A DNA stretch of 64,000 nt from Candidatus Nomurabacteria bacterium. GTDB lineage: Bacteria; Patescibacteriota; Minisyncoccia; Phycocordibacterales; UBA9973. The position numbers and the translations under genes were made by a program. The stretch spans positions 69,963 through 133,962 of the forward strand of contig CALQYS010000001.1 of assembly GCA_943348755.1 (NCBI GenBank). The letters are read 5' to 3'. Of this stretch, positions 3,637 through 64,000 are shown in pieces. The stretch's first letter is position 1, and each line of letters starts with the position of its first letter. The notes beneath the pieces were generated by a model that had not been told where the DNA came from, ran no database searches, and saw nothing but the letters and a program-made list of their open reading frames with translations.

Positions 3637-4398
3637 ATGAATACAGGTATCCCGACACAAACATTTCAGATAAAAACGACTGGTTTTGAAGGTCCGTTTG
3701 GGTTGCTTTTGGAGCTAGTAGAAAAGCGGAAACTTCATATTAATGATGTATCTTTGGCATCGGTTACAGAAGACTATTTGAACTATATAAATAAAATGGG
3801 GAATCTACATCCAGCCGAAGTGGCGAGTTTTGTGTTGGTGGCTTCTACTCTCATTTTAATAAAATCAAAATCCCTTTTGCCGAACCTGAGTCTGACCGGT
3901 GAAGAAGAAGGGGATATAAAGAATCTAGAAGAAAGGCTGCGCTTGTTTGAAATTTTCACAAAACTGGGTGTAAATGTGAAAAATATGTTTGGAGAGAAAA
4001 TAATCTTTGCTCCGCTCGAAAGGAAAAACGATGTCTTAGTATTTTTGCCAGATGAGCAGATTACAAAAGAAAGCATGATGGGTTTTGCCAAGGGCGCTCT
4101 TGGAAGTATGCCCAAAAAGGTATCTATGCCAGAAGTGGAGGTGCGAAAAGTCATCAGCATCGAAGAAATGATCAACAATCTGACGGAAAGAATCCAGAAT
4201 TCGGTGAAGATGAGCTTCAAAGATTTTGCAGGTAAGGCTAAAACGAAAGAAGAAAAGGTGTTTGTAATTGTGGGGTTTTTGGCGATGCTGGAATTGGTCA
4301 GAAGTGGTATATTAAACGTTGTGCAAGAGAGCGGTTTCGCGGATATTATTATTGAGAAGCAAGAAGGTCCGATTCAGTTGATGCAAGAAAATTTATAG
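3637..4398 (+). CDS. scpA: Segregation and condensation protein A
   Basis: LLELVEKRKLHINDVSLASVTEDYLNYI is a typical ScpA N-terminus; 253 aa; followed by scpB. Confidence 0.85.
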   Translation: MNTGIPTQTFQIKTTGFEGPFGLLLELVEKRKLHINDVSLASVTEDYLNYINKMGNLHPAEVASFVLVASTLILIKSKSLLPNLSLTGEEEGDIKNLEERLRLFEIFTKLGVNVKNMFGEKIIFAPLERKNDVLVFLPDEQITKESMMGFAKGALGSMPKKVSMPEVEVRKVISIEEMINNLTERIQNSVKMSFKDFAGKAKTKEEKVFVIVGFLAMLELVRSGILNVVQESGFADIIIEKQEGPIQLMQENL

Positions 4399-11052: not shown

Positions 11053-12474
11053 ATGTACAATAAAGTTGTAACTAGATTTGCGCCGAGTCCGACTGGATTT
11101 ATGCATATAGGCGGCGTGCGCACCGCGCTTTTTGCTTGGCTCTGGGCGAGGAAAAATAATGGAGTTTTTATATTGCGAATTGAAGATACAGACAAGGAGA
11201 GGGAAGTGAAGGGTTCAATAGAACATATAATAAAATCTTTAAAATGGCTCGGGCTCAATTGGGATGAGGGTCCAGATGTTGGAGGACCGCACAAGCCTTA
11301 TTTACAATCAGAAAGATTAGATTCTTACAAAAAATACGCGCAAATTTTAATCGATAAAGGATTTGCATATCCTGACCCTTATACAAAAGAAGAACTTGAT
11401 GCATTTAGAAAGAAGGCGGATGAAGAAAGAAGGCCATTTTTATATAGAGATCATCGGCCCAAAGAATTTGGAGTTTGGGATGGCACCAAGGCATTACGTT
11501 TTAAAACTCCGGAAATAAAAATCTATCATTGGAATGATGCCGTGCGTGGAGCCCTATCAGCCGGCGTTGAGGCTCTGGATGACTTCATATTGATTAAAAG
11601 TGATGGATATCCTACATATAATTTTGCGCATATTGTCGATGACCAAGAAATGAAGGTCACCCATATTATCCGCGCTGATGAATTTATCTCTTCTACACCC
11701 AAATTCCTTTCTTTATATGAAGCGCTCGGCATCACTCCACCAGTATTCGTAACTTTGCCGCCGATATTGGCTGACGGTGGGAATAAAAAACTTTCCAAAC
11801 GTGATGGGGCAAAGGATATTTTAGAATATGGGGAAGAGGGGTATTTACCGGAAGCTGTAATGAATTTTCTGGCACTTTTGGGCTGGAATCCTGGTACCGA
11901 AAAAGAAATATTTACAGTTAAAGAATTACTAAAAGTTTTTGAAATAAATAGAATTCAGGTTTCGGGGGCTCAGGTCAATCTAGAGAAATTAGATTGGATG
12001 AATAAAGAACATATGAAGAAATTACCAGCCGAAGAGATGCAGAAAAATATCTTCTCCTATCTTCCCAAAGAATTTCAAAATGAAAAACTTGTGCCGATTA
12101 TCTTTGAAAGGATCTCAAAATGGAGCGATGTGAAAGTCATGTTAGAGGCAGGGGAGTTAGATTGCTTTTCTGTGGTCAAACAGCCTAAGTACGACAAAAT
12201 AAAACTAGTTTATAAAAATTCATCACCTGAAAGAATTACTAAAAATATAAAATTGGTGATCAAAGCCCTAGAGAAATTAAGCGAAAATGATTTTACTATG
12301 GAAAATGTAAAAAGTACCTTGATGCTAATTGCTGAAATGGAAGGCAATAGGGGAGAAGTATTGCACCCTGTGCGCTATGCTCTTTCAGGTCTTGATAAAT
12401 CTCCGGATCCATTTATTATAGCCTCAATTATAGGAAAAAATGAAACTTTATCTCGCTTACAAAAAGCTCTTTAG
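11053..12474 (+). CDS. gltX: Glutamyl-tRNA synthetase
   Basis: Class I HIGH-type motif (PSPTGFMHIGGVRTALF) and KLSKR (KMSKS) motif. Confidence 0.9.
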   Translation: MYNKVVTRFAPSPTGFMHIGGVRTALFAWLWARKNNGVFILRIEDTDKEREVKGSIEHIIKSLKWLGLNWDEGPDVGGPHKPYLQSERLDSYKKYAQILIDKGFAYPDPYTKEELDAFRKKADEERRPFLYRDHRPKEFGVWDGTKALRFKTPEIKIYHWNDAVRGALSAGVEALDDFILIKSDGYPTYNFAHIVDDQEMKVTHIIRADEFISSTPKFLSLYEALGITPPVFVTLPPILADGGNKKLSKRDGAKDILEYGEEGYLPEAVMNFLALLGWNPGTEKEIFTVKELLKVFEINRIQVSGAQVNLEKLDWMNKEHMKKLPAEEMQKNIFSYLPKEFQNEKLVPIIFERISKWSDVKVMLEAGELDCFSVVKQPKYDKIKLVYKNSSPERITKNIKLVIKALEKLSENDFTMENVKSTLMLIAEMEGNRGEVLHPVRYALSGLDKSPDPFIIASIIGKNETLSRLQKAL

Positions 12475-13762
12475 TATAATATTTTTTATTATACTAGTGG
12501 TGGTTCCGCTTACTTTTTCTCGGGCACAAACCGTGGCAGACCTTCAGAATCAAATAAACCAAAAAAACCTAGATATAACTAGCTTGGAGAAAGAGATAGA
12601 AGGTTATCAATCCCAGCTCGAGAGTTTGGGGAAAGAGAAAAATTCTTTAAATAAATCTTTACAAGAACTTGATTTAACTAGAAAGAAGTTGACCATTGAT
12701 ATTGCTGTAACTCAGAAAAAAATAGACAAAACCAATCTCATGATAGCGAGTCTAACTTCAGATATAAGCGACAAGCAAGATGCCATAACGACTGAAGTAG
12801 AGTCAGTTTCTTCGGGTATTAAAAATACAAATGAATTTGAGCAGGGCAACATCGTCGGTACACTTTTATCTGAAAATAATTTTACGGAAATGTGGAATGA
12901 CTTAGATAACATGGTTACAGTCCACGAGAGTCTCAGAAAAGACATAGTTAAATTAAAGCAATTAAAAGGCGGTCTAGAGAATACTAAAAAAATAACCGTT
13001 AATGCCAAGAATCAGCTTACCGCTTTAAAATCCAGGCTTGCCGACCAGCAAAAAATAGTTGTACAAAATACCAACGAGAAAAATAAGCTCTTAAAGCAAA
13101 CCAAAAATAACGAAGCCAACTACCAAAAGTTATTAAAAGAAAGAATCATACAACGTGATGCTTTTGAAAAAGAATTACGTGACTATGAAGCGCAGTTGCA
13201 ATTTATCCTCGATCCATCAAAGCTGCCTAGTGCCGGAGTTCTAAGCTGGCCGCTTGAAAGGGTGTTTGTGACCCAACTTTTTGGTAAAACTGTCGACTCT
13301 AAGCGTTTATATGCATCAGGAACCCACAACGGAGTAGACTTTCGAGCTTCCGTCGGTACTCCTTTGATGGCCATGGCAGATGGTACGGTTTTGGGAGTTG
13401 GTGATACTGATTTGACTTGCCAAGGAGCGTCCTTTGGAAAATTTGTTTTCATTCAATACAACAACGGACTTTCGAGTACTTTTGGGCATCTCTCACTTAT
13501 AAAAGCTTATGAAGGGGAACTCGTAAAAAGAGGTGAAGTAGTGGGCTATAGCGGTGCTACTGGCCATGTTACTGGACCCCACCTACACGTGTCTCTATAC
13601 GCATCACAGGCTGTTAAAATGGCTTCTAAGCCGTCTTCATCTTGTGGTGGGCGGACTTATAGGTTACCCGTGGCGCCAATAAATGCTTATTTGGATGCAC
13701 TTTATTATCTACCTTCTTATGTCATAAATACCTCTTTGTTAACAAATAGGGTGACCGAATAG
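12440..13762 (+). CDS. Secreted M23-family peptidase with N-terminal coiled-coil (EnvC/NlpD-like)
   Basis: Signal peptide, long Q/K/E-rich coiled coil, then GTHNGVDFRA...GHVTGPHLHVSLY M23/LytM zinc-site motifs. Confidence 0.8.
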   Translation: MKLYLAYKKLFSIIFFIILVVVPLTFSRAQTVADLQNQINQKNLDITSLEKEIEGYQSQLESLGKEKNSLNKSLQELDLTRKKLTIDIAVTQKKIDKTNLMIASLTSDISDKQDAITTEVESVSSGIKNTNEFEQGNIVGTLLSENNFTEMWNDLDNMVTVHESLRKDIVKLKQLKGGLENTKKITVNAKNQLTALKSRLADQQKIVVQNTNEKNKLLKQTKNNEANYQKLLKERIIQRDAFEKELRDYEAQLQFILDPSKLPSAGVLSWPLERVFVTQLFGKTVDSKRLYASGTHNGVDFRASVGTPLMAMADGTVLGVGDTDLTCQGASFGKFVFIQYNNGLSSTFGHLSLIKAYEGELVKRGEVVGYSGATGHVTGPHLHVSLYASQAVKMASKPSSSCGGRTYRLPVAPINAYLDALYYLPSYVINTSLLTNRVTE

Positions 13763-44991: not shown

Positions 44992-46842
44992 TTACTCTAC
45001 TGTCACACTTTTTGCCAAATTTCTGGGTTTGTCTACGTCGTTGCCTCGCTCTACTGATATATAGTAGGCCAAAAGCTGCATCGGTATGAAAGCGAGGATT
45101 GGGGTAAGCATTTCTAAAGTTTTCGGGATATAAATCACATCATCAGCGATTTCTTTCATCTCAGGGTTACCGCTCGAGACTAGGGCGATGACTTTACCTC
45201 CGCGCGCCTTGATCTCCTCGATATGAGTTTTATTTTTTTCATACATGCTGTCCGCTGGAGCGATGACAAGCGTTGGGAAATTTTTATCAATTAGAGAAAT
45301 GGGACCATGTTTTAATTCGGCGGCGTTGCATCCTTCCGCATGGATATAAGAACACTCTTTCAGCTTGAGCGCGCCTTCCATGGCAGCGCCTGCGCAGTAC
45401 TTACGTCCGAGAAAAAAGAAATTAGGTGATTTTTTGTATTTTTCTGCGATTTTTTGTATAGATTTAGCGTTTTTAAGCACTTCTTCGACTAATTCCGGAA
45501 GTTTCTGGATCTCTTTTAGTATTTCTTCTCCACTTTTCTTGGAAAGTCCGCGCATCCTGCCTAGATAGACAGCAAGCATGACAAGCAGGACTGCTTGCGA
45601 AGTGGATGCTTTGGTCGAAGCCACGGCTGTTTCTGGACCAACGTGATTGTAAATCCCAGCATCGACGATTCGAGCGATGCTGGAACCGATGACATTCACG
45701 ATGCCCAAAGTTAGCATTTTATCTTGCTTTGCTTTTTTGATCGCGTTTAACGTGTCCGCCGTTTCTCCTGACTGGGAAATAGCAATCAGCCCAGTGTGCT
45801 GTGCGTCCGCGCTTTTTCTGTAAGTAAATTCTGAGCCATATTCGACTTTAGTTGGTATTCCAGATAATTCTTCAAAGGCGTATTCACCGATCAGTCCAGT
45901 AAAACGGGCCGTACCCATGCCTGTGATCACTAGATGTTTCAGATTTTGTAATTCCTTAGAAAATTTCTCCAGTCCGCCGAATTTTACATTACCTTTTTCT
46001 AAAATAATTCTGCCACGGATGGTGTTGCGTAAAGATTCTGGCTGCTCAAATATTTCTTTCAGCATAAAATGTGGAAAGCCACCTTTTTCTAGCTCCTCCA
46101 TCTTTGTTTTCAATGTCTGGATATAAGGGCTTTTGGTTTTCTTACTCAATATTGTTTTTATTTTTAAAGTAAGTTTGTCTTTTTTTGTTTCGATAGTAGC
46201 CATTTCGCCGTCTTCTAGATAAACCACTTTTTTGGTATGTTCTACGATCGGGGTAGCGTCAGAGGCGATAAAAAACTCATTTTTCCCCACCCCAATGACC
46301 GCAGGACTGCCCACCTTAGCCACTACCATCGTTCCAGGCTCGTCTTTTGATAACACCAAAATGGCATAAGCTCCTGTCACTTCTGCTAGCGCCAAACGCA
46401 CGGCTTCCTCCACAGAGACTTTCGTATTTTTCTTTATATCTTCGATTAAATTTGCCAAAACTTCTGTGTCAGTATCACTTTTAAATTTATATCCCTTGTT
46501 GATTAATATTTTTTTTATCGCTAGATAATTTTCGATGATGCCGTTGTGCACGATGACAATGTCTCCGCTGTTTGATACATGCGGATGCGCGTTTCTATCT
46601 GACGGGACGCCATGCGTCGCCCAGCGAGTATGAGCGATGCCCACCCCACCTGAGAGTTTATTATTTTTTACAAATTTTGAAAGCTCCGCGACTCTGCCCT
46701 TCTTTTTATAGACAGAAAAAGCTCCACTTTCCATAAGAGCAATACCCGCAGAGTCATAACCGCGATACTCTAGCCTTTCTAATCCTTTAATTAAAATTGG
46801 CCAAGCCTCTCTTTTTCCGATGTATCCGACGATGCCACACAT
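44992..46842 (-). CDS. glmS: Glutamine-fructose-6-phosphate aminotransferase
   Basis: MCGIVGYIG Ntn-Cys; two SIS domains; 616 aa. Confidence 0.95.
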   Translation of the reverse strand: MCGIVGYIGKREAWPILIKGLERLEYRGYDSAGIALMESGAFSVYKKKGRVAELSKFVKNNKLSGGVGIAHTRWATHGVPSDRNAHPHVSNSGDIVIVHNGIIENYLAIKKILINKGYKFKSDTDTEVLANLIEDIKKNTKVSVEEAVRLALAEVTGAYAILVLSKDEPGTMVVAKVGSPAVIGVGKNEFFIASDATPIVEHTKKVVYLEDGEMATIETKKDKLTLKIKTILSKKTKSPYIQTLKTKMEELEKGGFPHFMLKEIFEQPESLRNTIRGRIILEKGNVKFGGLEKFSKELQNLKHLVITGMGTARFTGLIGEYAFEELSGIPTKVEYGSEFTYRKSADAQHTGLIAISQSGETADTLNAIKKAKQDKMLTLGIVNVIGSSIARIVDAGIYNHVGPETAVASTKASTSQAVLLVMLAVYLGRMRGLSKKSGEEILKEIQKLPELVEEVLKNAKSIQKIAEKYKKSPNFFFLGRKYCAGAAMEGALKLKECSYIHAEGCNAAELKHGPISLIDKNFPTLVIAPADSMYEKNKTHIEEIKARGGKVIALVSSGNPEMKEIADDVIYIPKTLEMLTPILAFIPMQLLAYYISVERGNDVDKPRNLAKSVTVE

Positions 46843-46888: not shown

Positions 46889-47878
46889 ATGCAAGACAAG
46901 GTCAAAAATATTGTTACCGTGGGGGGCGGGACAGGCAGTTATACTGTTTTATCTGGGTTGAAGAATCTTCCGGATGTTTCTCTGACTGCGCTTGTCACTA
47001 TGGCTGATGATGGCGGTTCGACTGGGGTACTACGCGATGAGCTCGGAGTCTTGCCAGCTGGCGATGTGAGACAATGCTTAGTCGCTCTTTCGGAGCACAG
47101 CGAAGTTGTCCGTGCGCTCATGAATTACAGGTTTGAAAATGGGGGTTTGGCGGGACACAACTTTGGAAATATTTTTTTAGCAGCACTCGAAAAAGTCACT
47201 GGCGACTTCTCTAAAGGTGTGGAGACAGCTTCAGAAATTTTGAAAGTAAAAGGTACAGTTGTTCCTGTCACAAAAAATAAAGCGCAACTATCTATCTCGC
47301 TTTCTAATGGCAAATTATTTGAGGGCGAAAACAACATTCAAAATGCAAACTTACAAGAAGACAGTATTAAGAATATTTCTTACAAAAATAAGGTTTTATT
47401 AAATGAACATGCTAAAAACGCCCTACTAAAAGCGGATTACATCGTTTTAGGTCCTGGCAATTATTATTGCTCCGTGGTTCCCAATCTTTTAGTGGATGGT
47501 TTTAAAGAAACTGTCGCAGAAAGTAAGGCTAAAATAATTTTTCCAGTCAATCTTACGAATAAGCAAGAGCATACGGGAAAATGGAAAGTAAGTGATTACG
47601 TTCAGGACATCGAAAAATACTTGGGTAAAAAAGTAGACTTTATTTTAGTAAACAATGAAGCTCCCTCGAAACAGCAAGTCGAGCGATATAAACTAGAAGA
47701 AGGAGCGGGTGTGCTCGTGGAAGATGATCTTCAAGACAAACGAGTCGTTCGGGCTTCCCTTCTTTCCCCTATCGTTTTTGATAAATCCAAAGAAGATGTC
47801 ATTCCAAGCACTAAAGGCTTCATCCGCCATGATTCGGAAAAATTAGCGGAGTGTATAGAAAAGATAATGAAGAAATAA
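46889..47878 (+). CDS. YvcK/CofD-like gluconeogenesis-factor family protein (UPF0052)
   Basis: IVTVGGGTGSYTVLSGLK...MADDGGSTG family motifs. Confidence 0.8.
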   Translation: MQDKVKNIVTVGGGTGSYTVLSGLKNLPDVSLTALVTMADDGGSTGVLRDELGVLPAGDVRQCLVALSEHSEVVRALMNYRFENGGLAGHNFGNIFLAALEKVTGDFSKGVETASEILKVKGTVVPVTKNKAQLSISLSNGKLFEGENNIQNANLQEDSIKNISYKNKVLLNEHAKNALLKADYIVLGPGNYYCSVVPNLLVDGFKETVAESKAKIIFPVNLTNKQEHTGKWKVSDYVQDIEKYLGKKVDFILVNNEAPSKQQVERYKLEEGAGVLVEDDLQDKRVVRASLLSPIVFDKSKEDVIPSTKGFIRHDSEKLAECIEKIMKK

Positions 47879-61523: not shown

Positions 61524-61610
61524 GCCCAGGTGGCGGAATTGGTAGACGCGATAGACTCAAAATCTATTGATGGCAACATCATGAGAGTTCGATTCTCTCC
61601 CTGGGCACCA
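61524..61610 (+). tRNA. tRNA-Leu (anticodon CAA), CCA encoded
   Basis: 87 nt; acceptor GCCCAGG/CCTGGGC; long variable arm; anticodon loop cuCAAaa; T-arm GGTTCGATTCTCTCC... then ACCA. Confidence 0.9.
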
Positions 61611-61641: not shown

Positions 61642-62904
61642 ATGAAAAAAAAGAAAATTATTACTCTATCGGATTATTTCCCACAAGGCACAGAATATTT
61701 CTATTCATATCCCGTAGGAGATAGCATCTATCATTTTTTCAAACCAGAGGATCCCGTTGCTGAAGAGATGATTTCAGCCAGACTTTTGACTTGTGCAGGA
61801 GAAGGTATGAAGGTCATAGTATATAAAAGTATATTAAGATATAAATCCTTAGAACTCTTACGGAAAAATTCCGATATCCCTTTTATACCAAAGAAACAGA
61901 TAATAGTTTTACCGCCGACTATCAATGAAAAAACCTTAGATTCTAAAAAGAATAAGCTTGTCACAGATGCTCTACTTAAACAAACTTCCCACCGTAACTT
62001 AGTTGTGGCTCAGCCCATAATGGACGAACGCCTTTTGGATGAATATCAGATTGACCCAAAATTGAGCATTTGGCTTAATGATAAGATATACCTTGATCAA
62101 TACGTTGACTCTGAATTTTTACCACAAAGATATGCCCAATTTAGGAACGGACAAGACTTTTTCCACTCAACTGAGAAAATACCTGTTCCTTGCGTGGTAA
62201 AGGTGTCTGCTTCCAGTTCTGGTCAGGGTACAAGAATATGCTTGAACTCAATTGACCTCAAGAAAGCGAAAAAAGATTTCAAAAAGAGAGTAGGAACTTT
62301 GTTTATCGAAGAATACATTTCTTATATTCATAATTTTGGTTTTCAGTTTGGCATACCTTTCGACAAGAAAAAAGCTCCTCATATTATTGGTTATAACCAC
62401 CAAGTCACTGCTGCAGATGGGGAATTCCTCGGTGGGTTTATTTTTAAGAAAGAAAAACACAAAGAAACAAAGACCATAAAAAAGTTTATCACCAAAGAAA
62501 TTTTACCAAAAATTCAGAAAATGGGTTGGCATGGGGTGGGTGGCTTTGATGTATTGCTCAAATCTAATGGAAAATTCTATATTATAGATAGCAACTTCCG
62601 TACTACTGGTATGACCGCATATATTTTTCTTTCCAGAAATAAACTAATTTCAAAATCACTTGTTAGTTTTACCGCGACATTTCGTGGCACTCGGGAAGAA
62701 TTTGTAGAGAAAGTGCTATCTCTGAATAAGGGCGAAGACAAGATACTTACCATAGTATCTCTGTCTAAAAAAGGAAATGAGTACCGTTTTAATGGCGCTC
62801 TTTTGTTTGATAAAAAGGAAGAAACACCTCAATTAGCCTCTATACTTATAGGAAGAGGTATCAAATCAGAAGTTTTACAAATGCTAAGATTCTGGGAGTG
62901 TTAG
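61642..62904 (+). CDS. ATP-grasp domain protein (orphan ligase)
   Basis: VVKVSASSSGQGTRIC and GVGGFDVLLKSNGKFYIIDSNFRTTGMT fit ATP-grasp B-loop and C-terminal (E/D-x-N) motifs. N-terminus is unlike PurK, Ddl or RimK. Confidence 0.6.
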   Translation: MKKKKIITLSDYFPQGTEYFYSYPVGDSIYHFFKPEDPVAEEMISARLLTCAGEGMKVIVYKSILRYKSLELLRKNSDIPFIPKKQIIVLPPTINEKTLDSKKNKLVTDALLKQTSHRNLVVAQPIMDERLLDEYQIDPKLSIWLNDKIYLDQYVDSEFLPQRYAQFRNGQDFFHSTEKIPVPCVVKVSASSSGQGTRICLNSIDLKKAKKDFKKRVGTLFIEEYISYIHNFGFQFGIPFDKKKAPHIIGYNHQVTAADGEFLGGFIFKKEKHKETKTIKKFITKEILPKIQKMGWHGVGGFDVLLKSNGKFYIIDSNFRTTGMTAYIFLSRNKLISKSLVSFTATFRGTREEFVEKVLSLNKGEDKILTIVSLSKKGNEYRFNGALLFDKKEETPQLASILIGRGIKSEVLQMLRFWEC

Positions 62905-62967
62905 ACTATTTTTTACCATAAGTTATCCACACTTGCAATATATCATATATGAGATATACTTGTCAGT

Positions 62968-64000
62968 ATGAAAGAATCAGATCAAAGTGAGCAGGGGAAA
63001 ATAGGATATTTTATCAAAGAACTTCGAGAGCATCGTGGCATGACCCAGGAAGAGTTCGCTCAGGCACTCAATACTTCTCAAAGTTCAATTCCCCGTATAG
63101 AAAAGGGCGAACAAAACTTAACCACAGAGCTCTTGTCTAAAATTGGTAAGGTTTTGAACCATAAAATAGTTTCTATAAATGATTCGATTGATTTTGAAGT
63201 AAATGGGGGTAAGAAATTAAGTGGAACCATCAAGACTAATTTCTCCAAAAATGGTTCAGTGGGTCTTCTTTGTGCTTCCCTCTTAAACAGCGGTACGACT
63301 ACTCTCCACGGCATAGCGCGGATCGAAGAAGTAAATAGAGTGATCGAAATCCTAGAAAGTATTGGTGTGACAGTCAAATGGATCGATCAAAATTCTGTTA
63401 AAATTACACCACCGAAAGAATTTGATTTAAGTAAGATAAATGTAGAATCAGCGATAAAAACCCGTTCAATCGTAATGCTCATCGGGCCCCTTATACATAA
63501 GTTGTCACATTTTTCTATTCCTCATGCATATGGATGCAATTTAGGCAAAAGGACTATTTCTGCTCATTTATATTCTCTCGAAGAACTTGGTATAAAGATA
63601 AAAACAACCAGCAGGAGTTATGATGTAAGCGCTAAGAAATTAAAGGGTGGGAAAGATATCATAATGTATGAAACTGGCGAAACAGCTTGTGAGAATATTC
63701 TATTTGCTGCAGCCCTAATCAAAGGACCCACTACCGTAAGTTTCATGAGTAATAACTACATGGTTCAAGAAATTTGTTTCTTTTTAGAAAAACTAGGGGT
63801 AAGGATTGACGGTATCGGAACTTCGACTCTTACTATTCATGGGGTGGATAAAATAAATACGAATATTGAATATTCAAATAGTGAAGATCCAATAGAATCA
63901 ATGATGTTCATATCTGCTGGAGTAGTTACTGACTCAAATATTACCATCACTCGCTCACCAATCGACTTTCTTTCTCTCGAGCTTGAAAAAATGAAAAGGA
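62968..64000 (+). CDS. murA: XRE-family HTH domain fused to UDP-GlcNAc 1-carboxyvinyltransferase (MurA), 3'-partial
   Basis: N-terminal about 60 aa IKELREHRGMTQEEFAQALNTSQSSIPRIEKGEQNLTTELLSKIG (HTH_3). Continues in frame with no stop or ATG into KLSGTIKTNFSKNGSVGLLCASLL... (MurA N-terminus). Open to the window end. Confidence 0.7.
   Translation, partial: MKESDQSEQGKIGYFIKELREHRGMTQEEFAQALNTSQSSIPRIEKGEQNLTTELLSKIGKVLNHKIVSINDSIDFEVNGGKKLSGTIKTNFSKNGSVGLLCASLLNSGTTTLHGIARIEEVNRVIEILESIGVTVKWIDQNSVKITPPKEFDLSKINVESAIKTRSIVMLIGPLIHKLSHFSIPHAYGCNLGKRTISAHLYSLEELGIKIKTTSRSYDVSAKKLKGGKDIIMYETGETACENILFAAALIKGPTTVSFMSNNYMVQEICFFLEKLGVRIDGIGTSTLTIHGVDKINTNIEYSNSEDPIESMMFISAGVVTDSNITITRSPIDFLSLELEKMKR

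Follow-up and report, generated by a model that had tools for sequence, protein, structure and literature searches.

The locus described here lies at the end of a 64,000-nt stretch (the window) of Candidatus Nomurabacteria bacterium, a member of the Patescibacteriota (assembly GCA_943348755.1, contig CALQYS010000001.1, forward-strand positions 69,963 to 133,962). It consists of a murA gene whose product carries an XRE-type helix-turn-helix (HTH) domain in front of the enzyme, and of an 18-bp palindrome embedded in the promoter of that gene. On the + strand, an open reading frame (ORF) runs stop-free for 344 codons from ATG 62968 to the window end at 64000, with an in-frame stop 15 nt 5' of the ATG. 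The protein is ordered as an XRE-type HTH (aa 8-62), a linker of ~10 residues and a MurA domain, and the comparisons below suggest an enzyme that probably represses its own promoter. The features of the locus, in window coordinates, are as follows.

61524..61610, + strand: tRNA-Leu(CAA), a landmark 5' of the murA locus that precedes fused and HTH-less orthologues alike
61642..62904, + strand: ATP-grasp ligase gene (LdmS-like), between tRNA-Leu and operator
62933..62938, + strand: -35-like hexamer TTGCAA, abutting the palindrome (promoter scan: TTGCAA, 16-nt spacer, TATACT)
62939..62956, no strand: predicted palindromic operator TATATCATATATGAGATA, one mismatch from perfect TATCTCATATATGAGATA (repeat finder, orthologues)
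62955..62960, + strand: -10-like hexamer TATACT, sharing the last two bases of the palindrome (promoter scan)
62961..62967: 7-nt gap TGTCAGT between -10 and ATG
62968..62970, + strand: ATG start codon, 7 nt after the -10, no Shine-Dalgarno
62989..63153, + strand: XRE/Cro-C1-type HTH of four helices, recognition helix TSQSSIPRIEKG (aa 8-62; HTH_3, AlphaFold, orthologues)
63154..63183, + strand: linker, ...NHKIVSINDS (aa 63-72; low model confidence at aa 68-71)
63184..64000, + strand: MurA (UDP-N-acetylglucosamine (UDP-GlcNAc) enolpyruvyl transferase) domain (aa 73-344 of 508; truncated where the window stops)

The part of the gene beyond the window, read from contig L001, completes the MurA domain and gives a full-length product of 508 aa (P0001), to which the window part is 100% identical; miaA starts 2 nt 3' of HTH-murA on that contig. 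The preliminary description of this DNA had an HTH_3 segment running in frame, without a stop, into MurA, and both points hold: the peptide it quoted is found as written, Pfam and NCBIfam profiles match both domains, and all 344 codons from ATG 62968 are open. HTH_3 (PF01381) matches aa 16-64 (E 1e-13, 51.4 bits against a cutoff of 23), and this score above the gathering cutoff, together with the helical bundle, places the segment in the XRE/Cro-C1 family. EPSP_synthase (PF00275) matches aa 78-335 (E 4e-25), and NCBIfam murA models align aa 76-343 with profile positions 4-268 (E 1e-55 to 1e-57). In the AlphaFold model of P0001 (mean predicted local distance difference test score, pLDDT, 82), the helices of the HTH span aa 8-22, 27-33, 40-45 and 53-62, and a low-confidence tether at ~aa 68-71 joins the bundle to the MurA body. 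The absence of an internal ATG had also been claimed; Met25 is in fact encoded by ATG, and because it lies within the HTH the missed codon leaves the fusion claim unaffected.

The fusion could still be an artefact, or the HTH could be untranslated, with an internal TTG start giving a plain MurA. HTH-less orthologues exist, so plain MurA is viable, and TTG codons do occur at L56 and L63 in the window. Yet three contigs, each from a different sample, carry the identical 508-aa ORF (two of the assemblies are from ENA, the third from Logan), which excludes a frameshift, a missed stop or a chimeric assembly, and the architecture is conserved in hundreds of genomes. An internal TTG start, offered earlier as an alternative, was rejected as a conserved feature, since TTG is present at L56 in just 13 and at L63 in just 12 of 64 orthologues. 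Codon comparisons across these 64 indicate that the HTH is translated and under purifying selection: in the HTH, 42% of codon pairs show a synonymous and 19% a non-synonymous difference, and in the MurA N-terminus 50% and 12%, respectively. When 24 orthologues are aligned, the HTH matches the enzyme in conservation, and there is essentially no variation in the recognition helix TSQSS[IV]PR[IM]EKGEQN or in the junction NDSIDF. The conserved 7-nt gap between -10 and ATG likewise fits a leaderless start at 62968. An artefactual or untranslated HTH is thus refuted already at the level of sequence, and we regard it as hardly conceivable.

The fusion was called unusual in the preliminary description. 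It is indeed rare among bacteria generally, but it is standard in one large Patescibacteria clade, where it has already been deposited and auto-annotated; orthologues with the same fusion recur at 74-90% identity in >120 Patescibacteria clusters (Nomurabacteria/Paceibacteria) and in deeper relatives. The close relatives considered here are the best 120 cluster representatives (there are at least 120), which show 74-88% identity, almost all have 502-521 aa, and all carry both HTH_3 and EPSP_synthase; the three shorter ones include at least two that are named partial. Named representatives come from Candidatus Nomurabacteria, Paceibacterota or Patescibacteria, annotated as 'UDP-N-acetylglucosamine 1-carboxyvinyltransferase' or 'helix-turn-helix domain-containing protein'. 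When GTDB was scanned with one genome per species, 126 species proved to encode a relative, and the GTDB locus comparisons below use the best 80 of these 126 species loci. An exhaustive profile-free search of 1.8 billion representatives added further fused clusters at 31-50% identity, one of which, with 246 members, is from cultured Nonomuraea (Actinobacteria; e.g. WP_214634277.1). Because the architecture recurs down to 31% identity, Nonomuraea included, it must be old.

The HTH-MurA family is therefore already in public databases under automatic annotation. No published description of the fusion was found in the literature; PMC8871954 deals with murA only in terms of gene order. Five features set out below appear to be undescribed: the operator, its connection with murB, the leaderless design of the promoter, the kinship with toxin-antitoxin cassettes, and the derived pseudoenzymes.

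Aligning the DNA 5' of the orthologues revealed a conserved 18-bp palindrome with the consensus TATCTCATATATGAGATA. The copy in the window, reported by a repeat finder at 62939-62956, ends 11 nt before ATG 62968; nothing else in the 64 kb matches at ≤3 mismatches, where 0.06 matches are expected. Its placement relative to the promoter is kept across orthologous loci: TTGCA[AT] stands 0-1 nt 5' of the palindrome in ~58 of 65, and the -10-like hexamer, most often TATACT (23), TATAAT (17) or TAAAAT (13), always begins at palindrome position 17. From the palindrome end to the ATG there are 10-13 nt in 47 of the 65 loci (mode 11), equivalent to 6-9 nt after the -10, and there is no Shine-Dalgarno. 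This short spacing and the lack of a Shine-Dalgarno suggest that the HTH-murA transcript is probably leaderless, starting at or beside the ATG, and such a start at 62968 supports translation of the HTH. The earlier suggestion of autoregulation thus gains strong comparative support, since the promoter of the gene itself contains a palindrome whose occurrence strictly follows that of the HTH. Within the 64-kb window we found no second palindrome, murB, other HTH or other MurA homologue, so that only autoregulation can be claimed for the window organism.

The co-occurrence is evident from both sides. Among the GTDB loci, the palindrome is present 5' of 63 of the 64 HTH-carrying orthologues, once per ~9.5-kb locus, and the single exception has just 27 nt of upstream sequence. 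The MurA of another 15 of the 80 loci is ~80% identical to the window protein, lacks the HTH and begins ...SIDFxVNGGKKL; in these 15 (~9 kb each) the palindrome is absent even at 4 mismatches, and no separate HTH gene occurs within 4 kb either side of murA. The HTH-less genes occupy the same locus, with tRNA-Leu(CAA) upstream and tRNA-Trp downstream. Operator presence therefore tracks HTH presence (63/64 versus 0/15).

One HTH-less locus, L074 (~3965-4030), retains a footprint of the change: its protein begins MKKTNTQKIG followed directly by SIDFQV, so that the first residues of the fused protein run in frame into the MurA domain, an apparent clean in-frame deletion of the HTH. In a neighbour-joining tree of the MurA domain the HTH-less sequences are likewise dispersed within the fused clade; as the tree lacks support values and its internal branches are very short, we give it low weight and take the L074 junction as the better evidence for loss. 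Since some lineages have lost the HTH, catalysis evidently does not depend on it, and this agrees with a regulatory function. Where the HTH is kept, its recognition helix covaries with the half-site: SQSS[IV]PR goes with GAGATA (48 versus 5) and SQSAVAR with GATATA (10 versus 2; Fisher p = 9e-7, uncorrected for phylogeny).

The palindrome also extends beyond the close orthologues. An exact-pattern scan of metagenomes gave at least 125 sites on at least 120 contigs. Among the matches listed, 30 sites are directly 5' of HTH-MurA homologues, some only 37-62% identical to P0001, and 12 are 5' of operons encoding a Gp49/HigB-like toxin and an XRE antitoxin, where the site lies between a TTGACA -35 and a TATAAT -10. 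These 12 operons, all with exact TATATCATATATGATATA (L101, L113, L114, L119, L143, L145, L156, L158, L177, L178, L196 and L201), are on contigs spanning 26-49% guanine-cytosine (GC) content; their antitoxin helix reads [TK]QSN[IV]ARIEAGxQNF, and one of these antitoxins shares 42% identity with the window HTH. A perfect palindrome also stands 11 nt 5' of a stand-alone 85-aa HTH gene (TSQSAVARFEAG) on a 68% GC contig, and this HTH has the same TSQSAVAR helix. Another ~70 of the 125 copies among the matches listed adjoin unrelated genes and are mostly the low-complexity variant TATATCATATATGATATA; they are probably for the most part chance matches in a very large database and are not counted here as regulon members.

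The most distant occurrence is in three Nonomuraea genomes (69-73% GC), where the only near-match, [CA]ATCTCATATGTGAGATA, falls 12-13 nt before the HTH-MurA start. That an AT-only palindrome should hold its position in different phyla, and in DNA of high GC content, is very difficult to account for unless it is a binding site. The Nonomuraea HTH-MurA proteins are 50% identical to the window protein (L084 7971-9530; L205 2972-4530; L206 2938-4497), and the site ATCTCATATGTGAGAT is conserved 12-13 nt before their start. Their gene lies 15-16 nt 3' of a 567-aa Formyl_trans and enoyl-CoA hydratase fusion gene in L084 and L205, and ~20 nt from the same upstream gene in L206 if a GTG start is used; a phage-type integrase gene then follows. 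The Nonomuraea HTH-MurA is probably an extra paralogue, and perhaps sits on an integrated element.

Two further settings of the perfect palindrome were observed. It stands as TATCTCATATATGAGATA 10-17 nt 5' of a 440-485-aa family-4 glycosyltransferase gene (L090 3973, L169 3620, L193 4055) on three related contigs of ~41% GC with no HTH-MurA nearby, which may be another target or a coincidence. In L164 (263-861, 49% GC) it lies 12 nt 5' of a gene for a 190-aa XRE HTH protein with a different recognition helix (VSRATLSRLENAE).

These distributions bear on the possibility that the HTH does not bind the palindrome at all, serving in protein interaction or being vestigial, and that the palindrome is a promoter element or the site of another regulator. 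The overlap with the -10 means that the palindrome may be conserved partly as promoter sequence, many exact copies elsewhere adjoin unrelated genes, and the case for binding is made by comparison. Such a view would, however, have to accommodate the strict match of presence and absence, the covariation of helix with half-site, a nearly invariant recognition helix, and the recurrence of the motif in promoters of operons that encode related XRE HTHs. It would also have to explain why the motif is kept in Nonomuraea at ~70% GC, a base composition that makes a chance AT-only 16-18-mer very improbable. We consider a non-binding HTH very doubtful.

In part of the clade the palindrome is also linked to murB, identified by Pfam FAD_binding_4 and MurB_C. 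The predicted operator is in the gene's own promoter in every lineage, and in 23 of the 64 fused GTDB loci, as well as in six metagenome loci, it is shared with a murB divergent from HTH-murA. The murB ATG lies 10-15 nt from the palindrome in 21 of the 23 GTDB loci, 70 and 108 nt away in the other two, and 1-32 nt away in the six metagenome loci. At some loci the palindrome is 73-171 nt from the HTH-murA start, and there it usually stays next to murB. In these lineages one predicted site would thus serve the promoters of both enzymes that convert UDP-GlcNAc to UDP-N-acetylmuramic acid (UDP-MurNAc). A different arrangement was seen in L028 (3393-3981) and L065 (681-1288), where a 192-aa gene between the operator-promoter and HTH-murA forms a two-gene operon; reading of the sequences, as opposed to a profile search, makes its product histidine-phosphatase-like in L028 and P-loop-kinase-like in L065.

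The divergent arrangement raises the alternative that the site is an activator site or a bidirectional switch, by which RNA polymerase is recruited or the murA or murB promoter is chosen. In 23 genomes it lies between divergent murB and murA starts ~40-60 nt apart, and some XRE-type controller (C) proteins of restriction-modification systems act from neighbouring sites as both activators and repressors; such C proteins are among the PDB sequence matches to the HTH. A location across the whole spacer and into the -10 is nevertheless the classic one for a repressor site, and the related toxin-antitoxin operons share this layout. Autorepression through a palindrome embedded in the promoter is an established mode of XRE-family antitoxins. 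Activation or switching therefore seems quite unlikely to us, and repression remains the reading that we prefer for the palindrome.

The enzyme half of the protein is a divergent MurA that is probably active. Compared with ~45 MurA structures, the AlphaFold model gives template modelling (TM) scores of 0.77-0.88 and E-values down to 1e-38, which identifies the MurA fold. Ten of 11 key residues are kept, in the numbering of E. coli MurA (reference sequence identical to PDB 1uae): K22, N23, R91, C115, R120, D305, R331, L370, R371 and R397, equivalent in P0001 to K94, N95, R166, C190, R195, D392, R418, L459, R460 and R486. K22, R120 and R397 bind phosphonate or phosphoenolpyruvate (PEP), and C115 is catalytic and the target of fosfomycin (PMC4790336); with the cysteine retained, the enzyme is predicted to be fosfomycin-sensitive. 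P0001 scores 309 on the NCBIfam MurA subfamily NF006873, above the cutoff of 297. The Nonomuraea protein and the HTH-less P0122-P0124 show the same residue pattern, including Ala at position 369, a substitution that therefore characterises the clade rather than the fusion.

More distant fused relatives have gone further. Seven proteins that are 31-43% identical to P0001 (P0128, P0129, P0139, P0140, P0143, P0189 and P0232) keep the HTH (TSQSA[VI]xRIExGxQNL) and are without equivalents of C115, R91 and R120, often also without K22; they are probably transcription factors built on a pseudoenzyme, with the MurA fold as sensor. The window protein might then itself be a transcription factor only, its MurA-like domain a non-catalytic ligand sensor and the real MurA encoded elsewhere in the genome. 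Besides the seven deep relatives, its D369-to-Ala change and its score under the TIGR01072 cutoff point that way, and BzdR, an XRE HTH joined to a shikimate kinase, shows that such a route exists (PMC3602430). Against this stand the 10 intact key residues of the window protein and the ~80%-identical HTH-less orthologues of the same tRNA-flanked locus, which also carry Ala369; moreover, D369N is reported in viable clinical isolates of E. coli (PMC4790336), and the 64-kb window holds no second MurA. We judge a purely regulatory window protein unlikely.

The reading that we favour, and hold with moderate confidence, is that HTH-MurA is a bifunctional 'trigger enzyme': it would work as an active MurA and also repress the promoter of its own gene, whose transcript is probably leaderless. 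The N-terminal XRE HTH would bind the palindrome at 62939-62956, presumably as a dimer with one HTH per half-site. Since the palindrome occupies the whole spacer of a sigma-70-type promoter and overlaps the -10, binding should exclude RNA polymerase, so that the amount of MurA would limit murA transcription; such negative autoregulation would make murA expression self-limiting. In the sister subclade with divergent murB, the regulator would control both committed steps to UDP-MurNAc, and the ligand state of the MurA domain (UDP-GlcNAc, PEP or UDP-MurNAc) could tune DNA binding. The arrangement would have arisen most simply by capture of an autoregulated XRE cassette of the toxin-antitoxin type, promoter and operator included, in front of murA. 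From the comparisons of genes, promoters and models we infer DNA binding, repression rather than activation, enzyme activity and ligand modulation.

Several points weigh against this reading. MurA enzymes are generally described as monomers, which does not readily account for HTHs pairing on the palindrome. The equivalent of Asp369 is Ala458, and P0001 scores 302 on the equivalog TIGR01072, under its cutoff of 392.7. The covariation test ignores shared ancestry, and the palindrome is AT-only and contains promoter-like words; ~70 of the 125 listed copies stand by unrelated genes. The operator is present as a single copy in the 64 kb, in which no regulon beyond the gene itself is seen, and HTH-murA is the only murA within that same span.

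A more far-reaching version of the trigger enzyme would make HTH-MurA a metabolite-sensing feedback device for cell-wall precursors, captured from a toxin-antitoxin cassette and with pseudoenzyme regulators in its deeper branches. Canonical MurA opens and closes on UDP-GlcNAc, and it binds or traps UDP-MurNAc in several PDB entries among the structural matches. Opening and closing of the MurA domain, driven by UDP-GlcNAc/PEP or by UDP-MurNAc, a product further down the pathway, would alter the pairing of HTHs on the palindrome. If so, transcription of murA, and of murB where it is divergent, would follow the UDP-MurNAc pool directly, and the family would offer a natural series from enzyme to transcription factor. 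We put this version forward tentatively, as a possibility that we lean somewhat against.

Other genes around HTH-murA have possible ties to the cell wall. The ATP-grasp ligase at 61642-62904 (+) has 420 aa and no Pfam match in the contig record; its best NCBIfam match is to the L-aspartate--L-methionine ligase LdmS (partial, E 2e-28, far under cutoff), and it shows weak similarity to D-Ala-D-Ala ligase, so it may act as a ligase of cell-wall peptides. Its position between tRNA-Leu and the operator is peculiar to the window lineage and close relatives (L004, L008 and L027). Beyond the window, ~5-6 kb 3' of murA, L001 carries an Asp/Glu racemase gene (12448-13527) beside a gene for a 798-aa protein in which the N+C domain set of D-Ala-D-Ala ligase occurs twice, complete each time (a tandem Ddl-Ddl fusion); the two genes lie on the strand opposite to murA. 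GlmS (glutamine amidotransferase and SIS domains), which supplies the UDP-GlcNAc pathway, is encoded 16 kb from murA and adjoins a CofD-family gene (44992-46842 (-) and 46889-47878 (+)); the window scan associated no palindrome with either gene.

To our knowledge, little is understood of how transcription of the gene for the first committed step of peptidoglycan synthesis is controlled, and almost nothing is known of such control in Patescibacteria (also called the candidate phyla radiation, CPR), which have very few regulators and are mostly uncultured. HTH-MurA and its recognisable 18-bp operator would provide a testable regulatory circuit for CPR cell-wall precursor synthesis, for which Nonomuraea, with its 50%-identical paralogue and the same operator, offers a culturable handle. 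The family may form a natural series, from active HTH-enzyme through loss of the HTH to catalytically dead sensor-regulators, that parallels the engineered BzdR story. For annotation, 'MurA' and 'helix-turn-helix domain-containing protein' each conceal half of the function.

Among known systems, HTH-MurA functionally resembles the trigger enzymes BirA, PutA, NadR and RbkR (PMC5397151), in which a DNA-binding domain is fused to an enzyme of the regulated pathway. It unites in a single polypeptide a DNA-binding domain with what appears to be an active enzyme, and its predicted targets, murA and murB, lie in the pathway of the enzyme, with a predicted operator at its own promoter and at that of its pathway neighbour murB. 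Archaeal RbkR offers a further parallel, since in some lineages secondary loss of the DNA-binding domain has left a monofunctional enzyme (PMC5397151), as some HTH-MurA lineages appear to show too. HTH-MurA differs from these trigger enzymes in that its enzyme catalyses the first committed step of peptidoglycan synthesis, a step for which we found no report of a trigger enzyme in the literature, and in that its DNA-binding module is an XRE/Cro-type HTH and not a winged HTH or ribbon-helix-helix.

BzdR shares the order of an N-terminal XRE HTH, a linker and an enzyme-derived domain, which in BzdR is shikimate-kinase-like, catalytically dead and senses benzoyl-CoA (PMC3602430); the NCBIfam model PRK08154, for the family of XRE HTH and shikimate kinase, matches the window HTH. 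Unlike BzdR, the window protein keeps the MurA active site and has the EPSP-synthase fold. Loss of catalytic residues, absent from the window protein, is found in the distant fused relatives, whose degenerate active sites resemble the BzdR end state.

The HTH itself is closest to XRE antitoxins of the HigB/Gp49 type: its top NCBIfam HTH match is an antitoxin family, the domains are homologous (42% identity to one antitoxin), and the same 18-bp palindrome lies between -35 and -10. In contrast to HigA and other XRE antitoxins, HTH-murA has no adjacent toxin gene, its neighbours being the ATP-grasp ligase and miaA, and the C-terminal partner of its HTH is a housekeeping enzyme fused in cis. With canonical MurA (that of E. 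coli and E. cloacae, and MurAA/MurAB of Firmicutes), P0001 shares the fold and ten key residues including Cys115. It departs from canonical MurA in being ~25-28% identical to it (structure-based alignments to PDB chains), in an insertion of ~15 residues at ~aa 355-385 with low model confidence, in Ala for Asp369 and a sub-cutoff TIGR01072 score, and in its N-terminal HTH. Whereas Firmicutes MurA is controlled through ClpCP proteolysis, HTH-MurA would be controlled through a DNA-binding domain fused to the enzyme itself.

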